This document shows positions 4,032-12,893 of a stretch of 48,485 nt of DNA, in pieces (positions within the stretch are counted from its first letter, which is position 1; every line of letters begins with the position of its first letter). This stretch comes from a virus. The position numbers and the translations under genes are program-made. The notes under the pieces were generated by a model, which did not search any database, was not told where the DNA came from, and saw nothing but the letters and a program-made list of their open reading frames with translations. The stretch is from positions 1 through 48,485 of IMG/VR virus record IMGVR_UViG_3300028048_000011; one strand, 5' to 3'.

Positions 4032-4048
4032 ATGACTTGACAGGTTAC
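4032..4048. promoter_or_regulatory. Operator-like site 1 (ATGACTTGACAGGTTAC)
   Basis: It matches site 2 at 14 of 17 positions and overlaps the -35 of the rightward promoter. Confidence 0.5.
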
Positions 4049-4064
4049 AAAAATGTAATATAAT
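4037..4064 (+). promoter_or_regulatory. Candidate sigma-A promoter for the early (lytic) operon
   Basis: TTGACA (4037-4042), a 16-nt spacer, then TATAAT (4059-4064). The -35 element is embedded in operator copy 1. Confidence 0.6.
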
Positions 4065-4756: not shown

Positions 4757-4939
4757 ATGAACGAGATCAAAGTGGAGGTGATGTTCACAGATGGATACCA
4801 GAAGCGATACACGGAGGCAGTGGCGAAGGCGTATCAGAAAAAGAAGCATAGAGAAATGGTGGCGGCAGGGAAAGTCAGCAATCGCCGGTACGGTGGTGAT
4901 CGGAATCATCATAACGCTCCTGGTCATCATACCGACTGA
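4757..4939 (+). CDS. N-terminal fragment of the transglycosylase gene, in a different frame (see findings)
   Basis: MNEIKVEVMFTDGYQKRYTEAVAKAYQKKK looks protein-like and has an RBS (AGGTGA). After about 4845 its translation degenerates, while the +1 frame becomes protein-like. Confidence 0.4.
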   Translation: MNEIKVEVMFTDGYQKRYTEAVAKAYQKKKHREMVAAGKVSNRRYGGDRNHHNAPGHHTD

Positions 4940-5714
4940 TGGGAAAGACCAAGATAACACGCTCATTCAGGTTCCGGAAGAGCGGTACTACATGAGTGAT
5001 GACTACTACTACACCAACTATGAGGACTATGAAGAAGCCTGCAGGCAGAGAGATGAATACTGCCGGCAGCAGGCGGAAGAATCAGCCAGAGAGGTAGAAG
5101 CGCTCGAAAGAGCCAGGGTAGAGATGGAAGAGGCGGTACAGAGAGAGGCGGAAATGCAACTGAAGTTCTCACGAGCCTACTACAACTATCCGGAGCCGTT
5201 CAACGCTCCACCGATCACATGGTATGAGGAAGATCTGATCGGCTTCAGATACTATCAGATCCCTGCAGAGTACGAAAGAGAGGGTGGATACTTCCCTGAC
5301 ATCACGCAGGAATATCTCTGGGTGATCTGTAAAGAGAAGAACATCGACTTCGTGACGATGATCGCTCTCTATGAAGGTGAAAGCGGATATCACTTCGATG
5401 TGATCGGCAAAGCCGGTGACAGTGGATACGGACAGATCGTACCCAGTAGCAACAAAGAGCTGCTCGAAAAACTCGAAGTGACGGACATCCTCAATCCCTA
5501 TCAGAACATCCTCGTATCCTGCACCATTATGGAATGGCTCCTGAATGAATATGATGGCAGCTATGAAAAAGCGCTGACTGCATACAATGCAGGAACCGGT
5601 GGAGCATACAAGCGGTACTTCTCTGCAGGAGTAGACGCCAGTCCGTATGCAAAAGGGATCCTGAAGAAGGCGGATCGGATCAGGAAGGAGATAAACGATG
5701 CAGCAGAAGATTGA
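4791..5714 (+). CDS. Membrane-anchored lytic transglycosylase (SLT domain). The true start is uncertain
   Basis: It has a TM segment (AGTVVIGIIITLLVII), a coiled coil, and an SLT-like region (EGESGYHFDVIG...GYGQI...AYNAGTGG). ATG 4791 has no RBS, and the first ~25 aa look like off-frame translation. Confidence 0.75.
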   Translation: MDTRSDTRRQWRRRIRKRSIEKWWRQGKSAIAGTVVIGIIITLLVIIPTDGKDQDNTLIQVPEERYYMSDDYYYTNYEDYEEACRQRDEYCRQQAEESAREVEALERARVEMEEAVQREAEMQLKFSRAYYNYPEPFNAPPITWYEEDLIGFRYYQIPAEYEREGGYFPDITQEYLWVICKEKNIDFVTMIALYEGESGYHFDVIGKAGDSGYGQIVPSSNKELLEKLEVTDILNPYQNILVSCTIMEWLLNEYDGSYEKALTAYNAGTGGAYKRYFSAGVDASPYAKGILKKADRIRKEINDAAED

Positions 5715-6063
5715 TAACGGAATCATCTTCGTCAAGGCCTCGAAGGAAGAAGAGGCGGTCATCAAGACCTGGCGAATGATGAAGAAAGACAAAGACAAAG
5801 GATACTGGTACGGCGAGATCACAAGACCGCTCCTGGAGAACCTGCAGAGGAACGGCGGACTGATACCTCCAGCAAAAGCAATCCTGAAAGAGATGCTGAC
5901 AGTTCAGGCGGCGGTGGACGCAGAGAGGCTGAAGCCGGACAAAGAGATAAAGCCTCGGTACAAGTACCCGGTCAAGGCGAAGTTATTCACACATCAGACC
6001 AGGGCGGCAAACATGGCGCTGATGGTATTCGGGATCCTTCCGCCGGATGGGAGGAAGGAATGA
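5698..6063 (+). CDS. 121-aa protein whose C-terminus resembles the Q-motif N-terminus of an SNF2/SF2 helicase (split-gene N-fragment)
   Basis: The C-terminus is YKYPVKAKLFTHQTRAANMALMVFGI, matching the L-x-x-HQ-x2-A-x4-L pattern that normally precedes Walker A in phage SNF2 helicases. The RBS is AAGGAG. Confidence 0.6.
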   Translation: MQQKIDNGIIFVKASKEEEAVIKTWRMMKKDKDKGYWYGEITRPLLENLQRNGGLIPPAKAILKEMLTVQAAVDAERLKPDKEIKPRYKYPVKAKLFTHQTRAANMALMVFGILPPDGRKE

Positions 6064-6396
6064 ATGGAATACAAAGCAATAATCGAACGGCTTCAGAGCA
6101 TAAAGGACGGCCAGAACCTCGCTGACAAGGACGAAGAGGCGCTCGATGAAGCGATGGACATAGTCCACGATTACGGACTGGCCACGGAACAAGCAAAGAG
6201 AATGACCGAGAAGTACGAGACCACAAAGGCGGTAATCCAGAGAGGCAATGGCGGATTTGATACATGGCAATGCCCAACCTGCCACCAGTTTATAGGATAC
6301 GGCAACGAACACTGCCACTGGTGCGGACAGAAACTCGGATGGGATATAAGACCAAGAAGACAAGGAGGAAAAGGTAAATGCAGGAAGAACCGCTGA
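6064..6396 (+). CDS. Hypothetical zinc-ribbon protein
   Basis: This 110-aa protein contains CPTCHQFIGYGNEHCHWCGQ (CxxC-x10-CxxC). Its start abuts the upstream stop (TGAATG). Confidence 0.65.
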   Translation: MEYKAIIERLQSIKDGQNLADKDEEALDEAMDIVHDYGLATEQAKRMTEKYETTKAVIQRGNGGFDTWQCPTCHQFIGYGNEHCHWCGQKLGWDIRPRRQGGKGKCRKNR

Positions 6397-7706
6397 AGGA
6401 TAGAGACTGCACGATAAACACCCCGGTCACACTGGGAAAGCAGGACGATCCGATCTACGGCAAAGGCATCAGGATCCGGCCAAGGATAGACGGCAGGAAA
6501 GACACGAAGCACTTCGAGAGCATCTACCTGCAGGAACTCCTGCCACTGGAAGAATACGACCTGATCGTGGTTCTCTTTTCAGGAGGAAAAGACTCCACGG
6601 CCTGCTACCTCAAACTGATAGAACTCGGAGTGCCGAAGGAGAAAATCGAACTCTGGCACCACGACATAGACGGCGGACACCCTACCAGAAGAATGGACTG
6701 GCGATGCACCCAGAACTACGTGAAAGCGATAGCGGACGCAGAAGGAGTGACGCTTCGGGTTTCCTACCGGGTGAACGGCTTCTTCGGAGAACTCTACCGC
6801 ATAGGAGCATCGGAGCCGATCGAGTGGATCGACCCGGACACCGGGGAAGTAAAGCAGTGCAAACTTTCACCGAACTACCTCAAATGCAAGGAACTCAAAG
6901 AGCAGGCAACGGAGGAGATGGAAGAACTCCTGAAGGAATACGGCTACCGCCTAAAGTTCCCGGCAAAAACAGGAGACCTCTCCAGAAGATGGTGCAGCGC
7001 ATACCTGAAGATAGATGTGATGGGATCCGTAATCAGTAACCTCGACAGGCTCAAAGAACTGGAAGAACTCGGAGGCAAGCGTCACAAGTTCCCTGCAAAG
7101 GGAGGAACGCACCAAGGGAGATGGTGCAGCGGAAACCTCAAAGCGGCAGTCCAGGACAGCGTGACGGCGAACCTGCAGGAGACAAGGAAGGACAAGAAGA
7201 TCCTGATCGTCTCCGGGGAACGAAGAGGAGAATCCGCAGGCAGAGCAAAGTACAACGAGATCGAGATAGGCAGACAGAATGCCACGGCCAAAGCGCACAG
7301 GATCGTCCACCAGTGGAGATGCTGCATAGACTACACGGAAAAGGATGTCTGGGAACTCTTAAAGAGACACCACATCAATCCACATCCATGCTACCGGCTC
7401 GGATGGAACCGATGCAGCTGCGCAATGTGCATCTTCAGCACACCAAGATTATACGCAGGCTTCAATGAACTCTTCCCGGAAGACTTCAAAGAACTCCACA
7501 ACGATGAGGTAAGGCTCGGATTTACGCTCGACAACAAAAAGAACCTCTACGAGTTCATCGAGGGAGCCGAAAGCTGCGTGAACAGGAACGACCAGAAGGC
7601 ACTCCACAGCATCCAAACCGGGGAATTCACAACGGAGGATGTCTACATAGAGGACTGGAAGTATCCGGCCGGAGCCTTCCACGGAGCAGACGGAGGATCC
7701 TGCTGA
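6378..7706 (+). CDS. PAPS-reductase/PP-loop ATP-pyrophosphatase family protein (phage type, DndC-like fold)
   Basis: It has a PP-loop (VVLFSGGKDSTACY), RWCS..LK motifs (twice), and a C-terminal GWNRCSCAMCIF cysteine cluster. The RBS is AGGAGGA. Confidence 0.8.
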   Translation: MQEEPLKDRDCTINTPVTLGKQDDPIYGKGIRIRPRIDGRKDTKHFESIYLQELLPLEEYDLIVVLFSGGKDSTACYLKLIELGVPKEKIELWHHDIDGGHPTRRMDWRCTQNYVKAIADAEGVTLRVSYRVNGFFGELYRIGASEPIEWIDPDTGEVKQCKLSPNYLKCKELKEQATEEMEELLKEYGYRLKFPAKTGDLSRRWCSAYLKIDVMGSVISNLDRLKELEELGGKRHKFPAKGGTHQGRWCSGNLKAAVQDSVTANLQETRKDKKILIVSGERRGESAGRAKYNEIEIGRQNATAKAHRIVHQWRCCIDYTEKDVWELLKRHHINPHPCYRLGWNRCSCAMCIFSTPRLYAGFNELFPEDFKELHNDEVRLGFTLDNKKNLYEFIEGAESCVNRNDQKALHSIQTGEFTTEDVYIEDWKYPAGAFHGADGGSC

Positions 7707-7729
7707 AAGAATAAGGAGAAACACAACCC

Positions 7730-9232
7730 ATGAGAAAAGAAAACATAATCATCGATTGCTTCGCAGGAGGCGGAGGGGCATCGGTAGGAATTGAGATGGC
7801 TCTCGGCAGACAGGTGGACATAGCAATCAATCATGATCCGCAGGCGATCCTGATGCATAAGACGAACCATCGGAAGACCCTGCATCTGACAGAAGACATC
7901 TTCAAGGTAGACCTGAAGAAATATGTCAAAGGAAACCATGTGGCGCTTATGTGGGCAAGCCCAGACTGCACAAGCCACAGCAAAGCAAAAGGAGGGCAAC
8001 CGAGAAACTCCGGCCTGCGCATCCTTCCCTGGGCGGTTTACAAACACACGAAGACCATCCTCCCGGATGTGGTGATCATGGAGAACGTGGAGGAGATACA
8101 ACAGTGGGGTCCGCTCGATGAATCGGGAAGACCGATCAAGGAGCGGATGGGAGAAGACTACGACAAGTTCATAGCGGCGATGACGAGCCTTGGATACGAC
8201 TTCGATAGCAGGGAACTGGTCGCTGCAGACTACGGCGCACCGACAACCAGAAAAAGATGGTATGCGATCTTCAGGAGAGACGGCCGGAGGATCAGATGGC
8301 CGGAGCCGACACACAGCAAGAACGGTACTGACGGAACGAAGAAGTGGGTAGAATGCGGAGATTATATAGACTGGAGCGACATCGGAAACTCCATCTTCAC
8401 GAGGAAGAGGCCGCTCGCAGAAGCCACCAAGAAAAGGATCGCAAACGGGATCCGAAAGTACATCATCGAGAATCCGGCACCTTACATCGTGAAGGATGGA
8501 GAAAAGATCCTCATGGCATACATGGACAAGGCATACGGAGGCAACTACAAAGGATGCGGAAGTGACCTACGCAACCCATGCAGCACGATCACGACAGTGG
8601 ATCACAACAGACTGGTGACAGCCTTCCTCATTCAGTACCACGGAGAGCAAAAAGAAGGCGATAGCAGAGGCCAGTGCATAACAGAGCCGCTGAAGACCAT
8701 AGACACGAGCAACAGATACGGACTGGTCACAGCATTTATAACAAAGTTCTACAAGACAGGCGTAGGCCAGGGATGCGATGAACCGCTCCACACGATAACT
8801 ACATCGCCCGGACACTTCGGACTGATCAGCGCATTTCTGATCAAATACTACGGAACAGGAGGCGGACAGCAGCTGAACGAACCTCTGGCAACCATAACCA
8901 CGAAGGATCGCTTCGGACTGGTGAATGTCCTGATCAGCATCGAAGGAGAGCAATACATCATAGCCGACATCTTCCTCCGAATGCTGAAACCAGAAGAACT
9001 GAAGGTGATGCAAGGGTTCCCGAAGGACTACATCATCGACAGAGACTACCGATGGAAACGGTACCCGGTCGGAGAGCAGGTCAAGAGAATAGGAAACTCC
9101 GTGGTACCGATCATGGCTCAAAAATTGGTATCCGAGAACTGCGGATATCTGAAAGAGGGAGAGCGATGCCCGAACCCGATCATGTTCACACAGCCAAACG
9201 GACAGATCGCCTTCGAATACGCACAGGCATAG
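7730..9232 (+). CDS. DNA (cytosine-5) methyltransferase with a repeated variable region
   Basis: Motif I is DCFAGGGGASVG. Motif IV, with the catalytic Cys, is ASPDCTSHSKAKGG. Motif VI is IMENVEE. It also has QGFP and RIGNSVVP. Confidence 0.9.
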   Translation: MRKENIIIDCFAGGGGASVGIEMALGRQVDIAINHDPQAILMHKTNHRKTLHLTEDIFKVDLKKYVKGNHVALMWASPDCTSHSKAKGGQPRNSGLRILPWAVYKHTKTILPDVVIMENVEEIQQWGPLDESGRPIKERMGEDYDKFIAAMTSLGYDFDSRELVAADYGAPTTRKRWYAIFRRDGRRIRWPEPTHSKNGTDGTKKWVECGDYIDWSDIGNSIFTRKRPLAEATKKRIANGIRKYIIENPAPYIVKDGEKILMAYMDKAYGGNYKGCGSDLRNPCSTITTVDHNRLVTAFLIQYHGEQKEGDSRGQCITEPLKTIDTSNRYGLVTAFITKFYKTGVGQGCDEPLHTITTSPGHFGLISAFLIKYYGTGGGQQLNEPLATITTKDRFGLVNVLISIEGEQYIIADIFLRMLKPEELKVMQGFPKDYIIDRDYRWKRYPVGEQVKRIGNSVVPIMAQKLVSENCGYLKEGERCPNPIMFTQPNGQIAFEYAQA

Positions 9233-9302
9233 GTGCCAAGCGGTAAAACCGCATGACATAGAAACTATCAATCACAACCCAAAGAACAGGAAGGAGGACT
9301 AA

Positions 9303-10022
9303 ATGTTCGAGAAGTTATTCAAGAAGTACAAACGAATCATCTTCTTCGACACCGAGACCACAGGCTTCGAGCCGGAGAAGGTAGACCAGATCATTGAACT
9401 GGCAGCGGTCAGTATCGATGCAGACGGTACCATGCAGGAGATGGATGAATTCATTCACCTGTTCAGGATGCCGGAACTCCCGAAGAAGATCATTGAACTC
9501 ACCGGAATCCTCGATCTGACACTCGCAAGCAACGGCATCGATGAATACGATGCGCTGAAGAAGTTCGTGGATCTGATGCAGAGCGGCGGAGAGACGCTTC
9601 TGGTGGCGCACAATGCTCAGTTCGATCTTCAGTTCCTGGCATATTCGATCTACCGGAACAGAGAGCAGGGCAAGGGATGGATGCTCGTCCTGAATGACTG
9701 CGACTACCTCGACACGCTGACGGTATATAAGGACCGCAGGAAGTATCCTCACAAACTGGAATCAGCGATAGTCGAGTACCATCTGACTGGAAAGGTCCAG
9801 AACAGCCACAGAGCTATCGATGACTGCAAGGCACTGATGGAAGTAGCAAAGGCAATGGATGAGGAAAGAGATGATCTTGACAGATATGTAAACCTCTTCG
9901 GCTTCAATCCGAAGTACGGACCCGAAAAGAATCAGCTGAAGAAGGTCACATATGTACCTCAGGACTTGTGGAACTGCCCTCCGGCAAAACCCACATATGA
10001 AACGATATCAGGGAGGAATTAA
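9303..10022 (+). CDS. DEDDh 3'-5' exonuclease (DnaQ/epsilon-like)
   Basis: ExoI is IIFFDTETTGF, ExoII is LVAHNAQFDLQFL, and ExoIII is SHRAIDDCKAL. Confidence 0.85.
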   Translation: MFEKLFKKYKRIIFFDTETTGFEPEKVDQIIELAAVSIDADGTMQEMDEFIHLFRMPELPKKIIELTGILDLTLASNGIDEYDALKKFVDLMQSGGETLLVAHNAQFDLQFLAYSIYRNREQGKGWMLVLNDCDYLDTLTVYKDRRKYPHKLESAIVEYHLTGKVQNSHRAIDDCKALMEVAKAMDEERDDLDRYVNLFGFNPKYGPEKNQLKKVTYVPQDLWNCPPAKPTYETISGRN

Positions 10023-10024
10023 AG

Positions 10025-10483
10025 ATGGAAGATACAAAGAGAATCGTAGAGATTGACGGAGTCAAGGTGGAAGTAGATCTTCGCCAGGCGAAAAGGGTAG
10101 ATACATTCAAGGTCGGAGATAACATCAAGATCCTCGACAAGGAATATTCAGACTACAAAGTAAAGCCGGGAATCATCGTGGACTTCGCAGAGTTTCAGGA
10201 GCTGCCGACTATCGTGATCGCAATCTTCGATGAAGGATCCTGGAGCAGTGCGCCGAGTATTAAGTTCGTTTATTACAACGAAAAGACTGCAGACAAGATC
10301 GAGATGGTTCCGGCATCAGAAGATGAATTGAAACTGTCAAAGGACGGAGTGATCGAGAAGTTCGAGAGGGAGATCCAGAAGAGAAAGAATGAATACACCG
10401 ACCTGCAGAATCAGCTCGAATACTTCAAAAAGCATTTTTTGAAGGAGTGCAAGGAGGGAGAAAAGGATGGCAGCGAAGAATAA
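10025..10483 (+). CDS. Hypothetical protein (152 aa)
   Basis: The RBS is GGGAGGA. I recognise no motif. Confidence 0.65.
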   Translation: MEDTKRIVEIDGVKVEVDLRQAKRVDTFKVGDNIKILDKEYSDYKVKPGIIVDFAEFQELPTIVIAIFDEGSWSSAPSIKFVYYNEKTADKIEMVPASEDELKLSKDGVIEKFEREIQKRKNEYTDLQNQLEYFKKHFLKECKEGEKDGSEE

Positions 10484-11837
10484 AGGCTTTGGTCTTCTCT
10501 TCGAGATGGGATGCGGTAAAACGCTCACAGCGATAGCCATCATGGGAGCATTGTACCAGGAGGGAAAGATAGACAGAGTCCTGATCGTAGCACCGACATC
10601 GGTAGTGGCGGTCTGGCCGCACGAACTGGCAGACTTTGCGGAATATCCCTTCACAGTGGAAACGCTCCTGGGAGATAAGAACAAAAGGCTGCGGAGCATC
10701 AACGATCTGACGAAGTATCCGTACCCGAAGCTGAAAGTGGCAGTGATCAACTACGAATCAGTGTGGAGGGAAGATATCAAGAAGGCAATCAAGACCTATG
10801 ATCCGGATCTGATCATCTGCGATGAGAGCCAGAGGATCAAGACTCACAACTCAAAGCAGTCGCAGGCGATGCACGAACTGGGAGATCAGGCAAGATACAA
10901 GATGATCCTCTCAGGAACTCCGGTTCAGAACAATGTGACGGACATCTGGAGTCAGTACCGGTTCCTCGACAAAACAGTCTTCGGAGAACTCTACTACGCT
11001 TTTCAGAATCACTTCTGCGTGATGCATTCAGTGTTCAAGAGCAAGGTCATGAGAACAATCAACGAAGACGAACTGGTTCAGAAGGAGCATTCGATAGCCT
11101 TCAGGGTAACCAAGGAAGAGGCGCTCGATCTTCCGGAGCAGACATTCGAGACCAGATACATCGAAATGACTCCGAAGGAAAGAAGAACCTACGATGCACT
11201 GAAGAGGGAATCGGTAGCAGATATCGAGGGCGGAGGAACGATAACCGCAACAACGGTCCTCACGAAGCTCCTGAGACTGCAGCAGTTCACCGGCGGCTTC
11301 TTGGTAAAGGATGGAGCATCGGAACCGGAACAGGTTTCCACGGCAAAACTGGACGCACTGAAGGACATCATCGAAGACTATGTGATCGATGGCGGAAAGA
11401 AACTGGTAGTGTTCGCAAGGTTCATCCCTGAGGTCAATGCGATCATCGATATGGCTGAGAAGACTCTGAAGCCTGATAAGACCGGGAAGAAGGTAGTCAG
11501 TATTCAGGGATCTGTCAAGAAGGAAGAGCGAGGGAACATCATCGAGCAGTTCCAGAAGGATCCTGACACGGTACTGATAGTCGGTCAGATCGACACCCTC
11601 GGAGTAGGAGTCACACTCACAGCCGCAGATACCTGCGTCTACTACTCGAAGACATACAACTACGCAACCTATGAGCAGAGCCTCTCCCGAATCCACAGAA
11701 TCAGTCAGAGGAATGTCTGCACCTACATCGATCTGGTATGCGCCGACAGTGTAGACGAGAAGATCAGCACGGCTCTGAAGAAGAAGGAAGACCTTGCGAC
11801 AAAGATCGTGGATAACTGGAAGGAGATATTCAAGTAA
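10467..11837 (+). CDS. SNF2-family helicase, lacking the region N-terminal to Walker A (split-gene C-fragment)
   Basis: Walker A (FEMGCGKTLTAI) begins at residue 12. It has DESQRIK (DExx), SGTP and the helicase-C motifs (QGS...LIVGQIDTLGVGVTLT, SLSRIHRISQ). An in-frame TGA lies at 10440, just upstream of the ATG. Confidence 0.85.
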   Translation: MAAKNKGFGLLFEMGCGKTLTAIAIMGALYQEGKIDRVLIVAPTSVVAVWPHELADFAEYPFTVETLLGDKNKRLRSINDLTKYPYPKLKVAVINYESVWREDIKKAIKTYDPDLIICDESQRIKTHNSKQSQAMHELGDQARYKMILSGTPVQNNVTDIWSQYRFLDKTVFGELYYAFQNHFCVMHSVFKSKVMRTINEDELVQKEHSIAFRVTKEEALDLPEQTFETRYIEMTPKERRTYDALKRESVADIEGGGTITATTVLTKLLRLQQFTGGFLVKDGASEPEQVSTAKLDALKDIIEDYVIDGGKKLVVFARFIPEVNAIIDMAEKTLKPDKTGKKVVSIQGSVKKEERGNIIEQFQKDPDTVLIVGQIDTLGVGVTLTAADTCVYYSKTYNYATYEQSLSRIHRISQRNVCTYIDLVCADSVDEKISTALKKKEDLATKIVDNWKEIFK

Positions 11838-12049
11838 TGGACGAGATGAAGAGAATCGTGATCTGCAAATACTGCGGCCGTCCGGAATACTACGGAAATA
11901 TGATGTGGCTTTCAGGGAAGTGTTTATGCCGGAACTGCTACAGAGTGGAATGGGAACATGAAAACAAGAAACCGTACACATGGGATGATCTCAAAGGAAA
12001 GAGACCGACCATGGAGGAATACAAGAAGCAGGAGGGCATCAATGAATAA
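11837..12049 (+). CDS. Small zinc-finger protein
   Basis: This 70-aa protein contains CKYCGRPEYYGNMMWLSGKCLCRNC. Its start overlaps the upstream stop (TAATG). Confidence 0.65.
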   Translation: MDEMKRIVICKYCGRPEYYGNMMWLSGKCLCRNCYRVEWEHENKKPYTWDDLKGKRPTMEEYKKQEGINE

Positions 12050-12218
12050 AACTTGTAAAGGCTGCTATGCGGCAGACACAGGCGGTCACCCGATGAGCGG
12101 AGAGCCTCACGGATGCACGCTCGGATACAAGACGGACGGCGAAGGACATCCGCAGGAAGAATGTCCGAAGCCAAAGTCATGGAAACAGTACAAAAAAGAA
12201 CAGCCAAAGGAGGATTAA
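12042..12218 (+). CDS. Small Cys/His-rich protein (58 aa)
   Basis: The sequence begins MNKTCKGCYAADTGGHPMSGEPHGC... The ATG overlaps the upstream stop (ATGAATAA). I chose an internal start within track ORF 11958..12218. Confidence 0.45.
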   Translation: MNKTCKGCYAADTGGHPMSGEPHGCTLGYKTDGEGHPQEECPKPKSWKQYKKEQPKED

Positions 12219-12221
12219 GAC

Positions 12222-12398
12222 ATGGCATCAGCACAGAAACACAAGGAGAGAAGCAGAAGGAGCCACTCACAGAACAGCGGATACTCTTCATTTTTGAGAG
12301 GATCCATGCAGAAGCAGAGAACGAAGGCAGTCCAGAGGAACAACCGTAGATTATTCGGCGGTAAGTTATTCGGAAGAGCCAAGAGCAAAGCAGATTAA
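12222..12398 (+). CDS. Small basic protein (58 aa)
   Basis: It has a strong RBS (AAAGGAGG) 8 nt upstream. The sequence begins MASAQKHKERSRRSHSQ... It is below the ORF-track length cut-off. Confidence 0.4.
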   Translation: MASAQKHKERSRRSHSQNSGYSSFLRGSMQKQRTKAVQRNNRRLFGGKLFGRAKSKAD

Positions 12399-12413
12399 GG
12401 AGGTAAGAAGAGC

Positions 12414-12893
12414 ATGGCAGAAGGAAGAATCAAGGAACTCATCGACAAGTACGAGGCACTCCGAACGGAGAAGGACGAACTCGCAGAAAAGACAAAACTG
12501 AACGGAGAGGCATTCAAGCAGGTCCAGATTGACCTCGCTGAAGCGATCAGCGATGCGGATATGTCAGATGCTCAGGACGGAGAGTATGTCTACACACCGG
12601 GAGTGACAACGAAGTACAGTTTCAAGAGCATGGCGGATCTCGAAGAAGCCGGACTGGATAAGTTCGAGCCGTTCGAGAATGATGCAGCTCTCTGCGGACT
12701 GGTCAAGAAGGACATCAACTGGAGAAGCCTCAACTCGGCTCTTTCGGAACTCGCAGACACCGAAGAGGGAGTGCCGGAGGAAGTCATGGCGGTACTGAAC
12801 ACCTATGACGAGATCGGCATCACCAGGAGAAAAAAGGATACAAAGACAAAGTCCAAGGTTAAGGACGCAATCAAGGCAAGGAGGGAAAACTAA
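12414..12893 (+). CDS. Hypothetical protein of the recombination module (N-terminal coiled coil)
   Basis: The RBS is AAGGAGG. It sits immediately upstream of the AAA_24 ATPase and SSB genes. Confidence 0.7.
   Translation: MAEGRIKELIDKYEALRTEKDELAEKTKLNGEAFKQVQIDLAEAISDADMSDAQDGEYVYTPGVTTKYSFKSMADLEEAGLDKFEPFENDAALCGLVKKDINWRSLNSALSELADTEEGVPEEVMAVLNTYDEIGITRRKKDTKTKSKVKDAIKARREN

Follow-up and report, generated by a model that had tools for sequence, protein, structure and literature searches.

The window analysed here is the whole 48,485-nucleotide (nt) stretch of IMG/VR virus record IMGVR_UViG_3300028048_000011, the DNA of a temperate phage of gut Clostridia. It carries an SNF2-family helicase gene in two pieces. 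An open reading frame (ORF) of 121 amino acids (aa) encodes the N-terminal part, termed the N-fragment, and an ORF of 456 aa further down the same strand encodes the motor core, termed the C-fragment. The 4.4 kb between them, in what follows the gap, holds five tightly packed genes (Table 1). A first-pass annotation made from the letters alone had pointed to this arrangement; the ORFs, their coordinates and lengths, the in-frame stop codon, the separate ribosome-binding sites and the five plus-strand genes with their types are exactly as it described. The break is shared with a large group of gut phages and prophages, some with a homing endonuclease gene in the same gap, and it is probably an endonuclease-made fracture of the kind known from the MobA element of phage T4.

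Two halves of one helicase

By sequence the C-fragment is the core of an SNF2-family helicase or translocase of superfamily 2 (SF2), with both lobes above the curated Pfam cut-offs (PF00176, 126.5 bits, cut-off 24.9; PF00271, 55.6 bits, cut-off 23.5). It starts MAAKNKGFGLLFEMGCGKT, with an in-frame TGA upstream, at 10440-10442, that closes the frame. Walker A (motif I, GxGKT) is MGCGKT, at C-fragment residues 14-19 (10506-10523). The Q motif (HQ, N-fragment residues 99-100) is on the separate polypeptide, encoded 4.4 kb upstream of Walker A; that polypeptide ends ...PVKAKLFTHQTRAANMALMVFGILPPDGRKE (also given as ...KLFTHQTRAANMALMVFGILPPDGRKE) at its stop codon. Judged by its motifs, the enzyme would have the Q motif of an SNF2 protein only as a two-chain assembly. 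A Shine-Dalgarno sequence precedes each fragment (AAGGAG and GGAGG).

The full-length 547-aa helicase of Thermoanaerobacterium phage THSA-485A was used as BLASTP reference. N-fragment residues 31-109 match its residues 31-108 (E = 6e-5) and C-fragment residues 5-456 match its residues 109-547 (E = 7e-153). Because these matches adjoin without overlap on one protein, the two ORFs are halves of one helicase, as the first-pass annotation had supposed. Its claim that the missing Q motif sits on the 121-aa ORF is borne out as well. The C-fragment alone matches the Pfam ResIII profile from position 23, the joined fragments from position 4, which is N-fragment residue 96; in the natural fused helicases THSA-485A and P0218 the match begins at profile positions 3-4. 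Moreover, six residues (H99, Q100, R102, N105, M106 and A107) are invariant in an alignment of 30 free-standing N-fragment homologues diverged to 47% identity. The start of the SNF2-rel_dom match, at about profile position 21, was considered as proof of truncation and rejected, fused relatives likewise beginning at 20-22.

Among solved structures the C-fragment has its best sequence match in the Sulfolobus Rad54-like core 1Z63 (E = 1.8e-39; query 7-449 to chain 56-475). As the alignment runs from chain residue 56, canonical cores extend upstream of where the C-fragment ORF begins. In a structure search the fused-helicase model matches SNF2 remodeller ATPases. For the fused relative P0183 (585 aa), whose core is 91% identical to that of the window, the AlphaFold2 (AF2) model has an N-domain at residues 1-78, with a bbabba fold plus a long helix and block pLDDT of 82-91, then a Q-motif helix at 98-112 with pLDDT of about 70-78 and a linker at 115-140 with pLDDT below 50. 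On this model the split site is predicted to be a disordered linker between the Q-motif helix and the first strand and Walker A of RecA lobe 1. Modelled alone in AF2, the N-fragment of the window reaches pLDDT 85.

The N-domain has no significant match in the PDB, either structural (Foldseek) or by sequence; its best Foldseek match is the XPB N-terminal domain 2FZ4 at E = 0.92. A HARP-like (SMARCAL1-like) identity, a by-eye lead from 'IKNIPGRQWDPKRKVWVLP' in THSA-485A, was tried and rejected: the Pfam HARP match is subthreshold (E = 0.067; 13 bits, cut-off 25) and found only in THSA-485A, no HARP structure is among the Foldseek matches, and there is no sequence match in the PDB.

Distribution and age of the split

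Sequence comparison places the same breakpoint in about 180 related phage and prophage loci of gut Lachnospiraceae and Oscillospiraceae. Faecalibacterium phage FP_Epona has the same layout, with gp10 40% identical to the N-fragment, gp15 64% identical to the core and four small genes between. A word search finds N-fragment homologues that are all free-standing (42/42, 111-152 aa), and a profile search of 1.84 billion cluster representatives gives 134 matches, nearly all of 90-150 aa, three being full-length fused proteins. Two of the 120 closest core homologues, P0183 and P0218, are full-length fused proteins; the other 118, of 366-471 aa, are not.

With the N-fragment as bait we collected 80 viral loci and 66 prophage loci from bacterial genomes. 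In eight of the viral loci the gene is fused, in four the fragments are adjacent with no cargo between them, and in 57 a gap of 306-4,885 bp parts them; the breakpoint always falls in a variable linker between HQxRAANMAL..FG and KGFGLLFEMGCGKT. Of the prophage loci, 50 contain both halves: 49 in split form, one with the fragments adjacent and not one fused. Nearly every prophage host belongs to the Lachnospiraceae or Oscillospiraceae, among them Acetatifactor, Faecalibacterium, Flintibacter and Hominiventricola. A search baited with the core, which does away with the ascertainment bias of the N-fragment bait, gives 71 assessable loci: 67 split with an upstream N-fragment, two adjacent, one fused and one lacking an N-fragment (an outlier at 46% identity). 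At L098, L111, L135 and L138 no helicase core lies within 7-10 kb downstream of the N-fragment.

The median pairwise ratio of nonsynonymous to synonymous substitution rates (dN/dS) comes to 0.22 in the N-fragment and 0.10 in the core; between the window and locus L005 it is 0.078 and 0.061. On these ratios both halves are under purifying selection, and the comparisons as a whole mark the split as old and inherited, with no recent disruption.

Homing endonucleases and Walker-A inserts in relatives

The first-pass annotation had reported no intein, intron or homing endonuclease signature. This is true of the window, as detailed below, and untrue of its relatives, whose gaps hold HNH and NUMOD4 endonuclease genes. 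An HNH_3 gene, where present (16 loci plus the metagenomic locus L152), is always the last gene before the C-fragment. NUMOD4 genes stand next to the N-fragment in L026, L031, L033, L110, L121 and L141.

The Walker-A codons GAR ATG GGN TGY GGN AAR are interrupted by an insert of 4-44 nt in 33 of 122 assessable loci (listed in Table 1). All 16 HNH loci have such an insert, against 17 of the 106 HNH-less loci (Fisher p = 2.8e-11, HNH presence being scored with a trimmed HNH query), and the association holds on non-redundant junction sequences (p = 6e-6). HNH gene and insert are found together in L010, a member of the window's own subclade. The corresponding Walker-A stretch of the window is the presumed target of the endonuclease, which an insert would destroy.

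Tree, re-fusion and recombination

In the tree of helicase cores a basal grade is entirely fused (THSA-485A, L046, L048, L055, L057, L081 and L082), so that uninterrupted helicases do exist in related phages, a comparison that the first-pass annotation had proposed. Every cargo-bearing split locus falls in one clade, with the fused L008 and L004 nested inside it and L008 adjoining the window and L005. From their position such nested fused lineages, three in all, look secondarily re-fused. The L004 linker translates through a relic Shine-Dalgarno sequence and ATG (AGAGGAGGTGGTTTAATG), and differs from the L006/L007 linker only by a TGG in place of the TAG that ends the L006/L007 N-fragment. Since re-fusion in frame occurs, the halves would still fit together. 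L004 is 88% identical to the window in its N part and only 59% in the core; for L008 the values are 80% and 91%. Such discordant similarity of the halves indicates recombination breakpoints in or near the gap.

L053 and L054 (about 5385-5460 and 5074-5150) lie within the fused basal grade and have the same linker split. Their N-fragment stop overlaps the C-fragment start, there is no cargo, and the Walker-A codons hold two inserts, of 10 nt and 5 nt. The arrangement has the look of another split, independent of the first, and resembles an endonuclease hit-and-run; because it has Walker-A inserts without cargo it favours the order in which the endonuclease came first.

Cargo genes in the gap

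Gap sizes among relatives with the same breakpoint range over 182-4,890 bp and the genes inside are entirely different, which makes the split older than the cargo of the window. The first-pass suggestion that the helicase gene was disrupted by acquisition of a 4.4-kb DNA-modification island therefore finds no support in that form: the five genes are independent single-gene modules. Compared with L005, the window has two extra modules bounded by gene boundaries, the methyltransferase (7716-9222) and the 152-aa ORF (10018-10456); compared with the re-fused L008, homology ends at 6031 and restarts at 10475. Taken across loci, the gap appears to be a hot spot in which single genes are gained and lost. 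All gap cargo is on the plus strand. Integron-, transposon- or att-type repeats were looked for at the flanks of the cargo, where only short, chance-level repeats were found.

The zinc-ribbon gene abuts the N-fragment stop with its start (TGAATG), which suggests translational coupling of the two. It is the first gene after the N-fragment in 35 of 55 split viral loci, is found in none of 14 fused or adjacent loci, and is the sole cargo of the smallest gaps (L035, L040, L052 and L070). The protein has only six database homologues. Its candidacy as an obligatory bridging subunit was rejected, 20 of the 55 split loci having no such gene. In some loci a related small-protein family without the zinc ribbon takes its place, and there is one hybrid, L021.

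Among the viral loci examined the PAPS-reductase-like gene is common only to the window and L005. C5-methyltransferases are found in the gap of 19 of the 55 split viral loci, with two other types besides, and DEDDh exonuclease genes in six of these loci and in 7 of the 49 split prophage loci. Further cargo across loci includes GcrA/Myb-like, HD, radical-SAM-like and PcfJ-like proteins and the homing endonucleases; a tyrosine recombinase-like protein was assigned by eye from its sequence. NCBIfam gives only sub-threshold, family-level matches for the cargo proteins of the window. The C5-methyltransferase of the window has 500 aa against a Pfam profile of 324 positions, with about four tandem repeats of ~50 aa in its variable region (unit ..TITT.D..GLV.AF(L/I)..Y.G; DNA repeat at 8585/8891), an architecture reminiscent of multispecific phage methyltransferases with several target-recognition modules.

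Inserts as candidate bypass sites

Twenty-four distinct insert junctions were analysed against a null of random inserts (2,000 simulations). A stop codon directly follows the pre-insert codon at 20 of them (null mean 1.7, maximum 7). The last triplet of the insert is synonymous with the pre-insert codon at 16 (null 4.1, maximum 12) and identical to it at eight. The common pattern is a take-off codon, a stop and then a matching landing codon; the inserts TAGC (L022) and TAAGGT (L117/L131) fit it poorly. Insert-bearing genes have a strong Shine-Dalgarno sequence, a start codon that is mostly ATG and the frame M..KGFGLLFE up to the insert. Past the insert 431-447 codons are intact, except in L133, which the contig end cuts, and L119, where the frame has 654 codons. 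The part downstream of inserts has a median dN/dS of 0.147, and L037 and L049 have one common insert despite a synonymous divergence (dS) of 0.83, at omega 0.05.

At L079 (15047-15082; the same contig as L150/L188) the interruption is of 44 nt, GGT TGA ... GGT TGC, after the Gly15 codon. It forms a predicted hairpin of 16 bp (-23.3 kcal/mol, z = -6.1) with the take-off codon and stop in the 5' arm and the 3' arm inside the interruption. L152 (minus strand, about 819-886) has a minimal arrangement of N-fragment, HNH gene and C-fragment with an interruption of 45 nt. Its take-off/landing pair is GGC..GGC against GGT..GGT in L079, both codons having changed together, and its hairpin (-17.8) is kept through G-U/G-C changes, while the flanking coding DNA is only 69% identical to that of L079. 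In these interruptions of 44-45 nt the hairpin is followed by a GAG-containing AU-rich tail. A search of the viral collection for further long ones yields only L079's own contig; a metagenome scan yields L159 (2335-2401, identical) and the diverged L152, its other 11 matches being unrelated P-loop genes. The inserts of 4-13 nt are too short for a take-off stem-loop, and the Walker-A region of the window has no RNA structure (z = 0.07).

These patterns make the inserts candidates for ribosomal hop or bypass sites, or for inserts that confer immunity to the endonuclease. For those that lie just before the ATG of EMGCGKT, termination followed by reinitiation, a further split of the gene, would be as simple an explanation as hopping.

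Operon context of the window

A consensus promoter-like site lies where the minus-strand genes and the plus-strand early operon diverge, and no other plus-strand promoter-like or terminator-like site is predicted between 4.1 and 13 kb; this suggests a single early transcript that holds both helicase fragments and the cargo. The transglycosylase gene upstream shares its last 17 nt with the start of the N-fragment and is an indel in its own right: window positions 4850-5672 are absent from L004 and L008, with flanks 82-93% identical. Downstream, a 70-aa ORF starts on the helicase stop (ATGA overlap); a small ORF of FP_Epona, gp16, occupies the matching place, a likeness by position only.

Table 1. 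Features of the helicase locus in the window, with the relatives that carry Walker-A inserts
Feature	Position	Strand	Remarks
Promoter-like site, sigma-70 type	4037..4064	+	TTGACA-16-TATAAT; 12/12 consensus match
SLT-domain transglycosylase gene	4791..5714		
Helicase N-fragment, 121 aa	5698..6063	+	Small alpha/beta domain (bbabba), long helix, Q-motif helix, short variable tail
Q-motif segment L96-L108	5983..6021	+	LFTHQTRAANMAL; within N-fragment
Cargo gene 1, 110-aa helical protein	6064..6396	+	C-terminal Cys4 zinc ribbon (CPxC...HCHWCG)
Cargo gene 2, 442-aa PAPS-reductase-like PP-loop protein	6378..7706	+	SGGKDS motif; PF01507, 35 bits; phrog_424
Cargo gene 3, 500-aa C5 cytosine DNA methyltransferase	7730..9232	+	Single-gene module
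Cargo gene 4, 239-aa 3'-5' exonuclease	9303..10022	+	DEDDh (DnaQ/RNase T-type)
Cargo gene 5, 152-aa protein	10025..10483	+	phrog_15098; single-gene module; 17-nt overlap with C-fragment start
Helicase C-fragment, 456 aa	10467..11837	+	Walker A through both RecA-like lobes (SNF2-rel_dom + Helicase_C)
Walker-A codons	10503..10523	+	GAG ATG GGA TGC GGT AAA ACG; uninterrupted, canonical 15-nt spacing in window
70-aa ORF	11837..12049		Two CxxC pairs
Insert-bearing loci (relatives)			L006/7, L010, L014, L017, L022-25, L031, L037, L049, L053/54, L056, L079, L089, L091, L093, L105, L110, L115, L117-119, L121, L125, L126, L128, L131, L133, L141, L145

Origin and function of the split

We propose the following account. 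The helicase gene would owe its fracture to an element like MobA of T4, with a free-standing HNH homing endonuclease, and the fracture would then have been inherited across a large clade. Endonuclease and insert would have been lost later, with the split kept and the gap filled with single accessory genes, which is the state of the window. The two fragments would be translated separately, from their own ribosome-binding sites within one early operon, and would re-associate non-covalently, the N-fragment completing the ATPase core with the Q motif, which contacts adenine, and with an accessory domain at the N-terminus. Taken as a whole, with the fracture, the two-subunit helicase and the post-endonuclease state of the window, we think this account probably correct. 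Its functional part is more secure than its endonuclease origin: the proposal, already made in the first-pass annotation, that the helicase works as two polypeptides is well supported comparatively, by the large clade, the invariant Q motif, the low dN/dS and the position of the break in a predicted disordered linker. As in the MobA and MobE cases, some relatives have the gene in one piece and others have it broken at a single conserved position, both fragments are kept under purifying selection, and an endonuclease gene lies in the gap, here in relatives and not in the window.

Several observations weigh against this account. The five cargo proteins of the window have no match to the HNH, GIY-YIG, LAGLIDADG or NUMOD families and its Walker-A region has no insert, so that the tie of the window to an endonuclease element rests on phylogeny; the core tree is a neighbour-joining tree without support values. 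The earliest-branching split lineage, L042/L015, has neither the HNH nor the zinc-ribbon gene, so that the endonuclease may have colonised a gap that already existed. In L018, L060 and L062 the N-fragment is present with no helicase core within 7-10 kb downstream; core-less loci may reflect much larger cargo, rearrangement or loss of the core. Many of the loci, finally, are metagenomic and partly redundant, hence not independent.

As the main alternative, the gap may have come first, through some other event such as a stop/restart mutation in the linker or an illegitimate insertion of the zinc-ribbon gene, with cargo and then Walker-A-targeting endonucleases arriving later. This would change only the origin of the split and leave two-polypeptide function as it is. 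It would suit the zinc-ribbon gene, the commonest cargo, with its place at the head of so many gaps and alone in the smallest ones, as well as the absence of HNH from L042/L015, the single TAG/TGG change that toggles between split L006/7 and fused L004, and the preference of free-standing endonucleases for intergenic sites (PMC2988022). We nevertheless think it unlikely, because the HNH gene, wherever it occurs, directly adjoins the C-fragment and is accompanied by a target-site insert, because the independent L053/54 split has Walker-A inserts and no cargo, and because the full series of states fits a MobA element. A further alternative denies that the halves reassemble: the C-fragment would be a self-sufficient ATPase without a Q motif and the 121-aa protein would serve another function, such as that of a regulator or a DNA-binding factor. 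Some SF2 enzymes do tolerate changes in the Q motif, the N and C halves recombine independently (as in L004), and the N-fragment evolves faster than the core. The six invariant Q-motif residues of free-standing N-fragments are nonetheless hard to explain without an ATPase partner, the two genes are found together with either one as bait, and the in-frame re-fusion of lineages implies parts that still fit, so that separate roles seem quite improbable to us.

Two other explanations can be given very little weight. A helicase interrupted by 4.4 kb of foreign genes, with further frame-breaking inserts in some relatives, might be taken for a decaying pseudogene, inactivated by insertion. Both ORFs are intact with ribosome-binding sites, however, and the low dN/dS in both halves excludes such decay; the split also persists in a clade whose cores have diverged below 60% identity, and even the insert-bearing genes keep their long intact downstream frames at a dN/dS of 0.15. 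Nor is it at all credible that the ORFs are rejoined by an intron, a split intein or a long-range ribosomal bypass over 4.4 kb, for which we found no favourable sign. An RNA-family search of 5000-12500 at E <= 1 gives no intron, its sole match being a chance long non-coding RNA at E = 0.82; the fragment tails are variable, extend about 7-15 aa past the helicase homology and lack intein blocks, Cys1, a terminal HN and any Pfam intein match; and the gap encodes five ordinary translated genes.

Comparison with known split genes

In T4 the HNH endonuclease MobA splits the topoisomerase gene into genes 39 and 60 (bioRxiv 10.1101/2022.08.31.505936). The gene 60 insert begins with a stop, has matched Gly take-off and landing codons and a take-off hairpin, and is bypassed; it prevents self-cleavage (bioRxiv 10.1101/2022.08.31.505936). 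Lineages are known in which the endonuclease has been lost, the insert lost with the split kept, or the gene re-fused (PMC2988022; bioRxiv 10.1101/2022.08.31.505936). The relatives of the window resemble this system in many respects: an HNH-family gene inside an essential DNA-metabolism gene, two polypeptides, an insert near the 5' end of the downstream fragment with a stop after a Gly take-off codon and a matching landing codon, the predicted take-off hairpin of L079, and lineages without the endonuclease, without the insert yet split, or re-fused. The MobA element has been reported only from myovirus topoisomerase genes. Here, by contrast, the enzyme is an SNF2 helicase with its Q motif parted from Walker A, and the phages are temperate phages of Lachnospiraceae and Oscillospiraceae rather than T4-like myoviruses. 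Whereas MobA has one homologous 50-nt cassette, the inserts here are mostly of 4-13 nt, with many unrelated sequences at several positions within 21 nt. The gap gathers up to 5 kb of unrelated cargo, and the window itself has neither endonuclease nor insert.

In the nrdA gene of Aeromonas phage Aeh1 an HNH gene (mobE) likewise splits a conserved enzyme gene at a functionally critical region, and the two NrdA polypeptides reassemble into an active enzyme (PMC2988022). The Aeh1 gap is the endonuclease gene alone, in few phages; the helicase split is fixed in a large clade and mostly endonuclease-free. In Aeromonas phages 25 and 44RR the A and B parts of the gene 43 polymerase co-purify and are active, with gap content that varies between a seg endonuclease gene and an untranslated spacer (PMC2988022). 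The helicase gap varies in content too, though far more, and the enzyme is another one; no target-site inserts are reported for gene 43. By analogy with split NrdA, topoisomerase and DNA polymerase of T4-like phages, non-covalent reassembly is most likely for the helicase fragments as well. The fractured genes of Dassa et al. 2009 (PMC2677866) are also reported to be broken by free-standing endonuclease genes in environmental phage-like DNA; those have split-intein halves that ligate, unlike the helicase fragments, which have no intein-like segments. The C-fragment is similar in its core to Sulfolobus 1Z63 and other SNF2 translocases, in which a single chain also carries the segment upstream of Walker A, in contrast to the two chains here.

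The helicase gene would be an endonuclease-fractured phage gene of the MobA/MobE type, set apart by the enzyme, the cut site, the fixation in gut phages, the cargo hot spot and, in relatives, the diverse candidate bypass sites. A more specific reading, which we regard as possible rather than probable, is that the split in the window is the endonuclease-free remnant of a second, independent MobA-like family, in whose other members more than 20 different stop-containing inserts of 4-45 nt are decoded by hopping or bypassing.

Significance

A handful of cases from T4-like phages are known in which a gene broken by a selfish endonuclease still gives rise to a functional enzyme. The same logic is apparently fixed across a large and abundant group of human and animal gut phages. 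The cut passes through an ATP-binding site, leaving the Q motif on one chain and the P-loop on the other, a natural test of how far an SF2 motor tolerates fragmentation. Under present gene callers the N-fragment comes out as 'hypothetical', and the core is taken for a complete helicase; the gap is a predictable landing pad for methyltransferases, nucleases and regulators, which helps annotation and possibly engineering.

The most consequential lead is the many independent short inserts of the relatives. Natural short-distance hops have long been sought (PMC5009743), and these inserts would make short-distance bypassing directly testable, the candidates including loci of cultured hosts such as Flintibacter muris DSM 110149 and Acutalibacter sp. 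1XD8-36. If the reading is true, they would be the first natural bypass sites beyond T4-like topoisomerase genes and yeast mitochondria, and would form a graded natural series of gap lengths.

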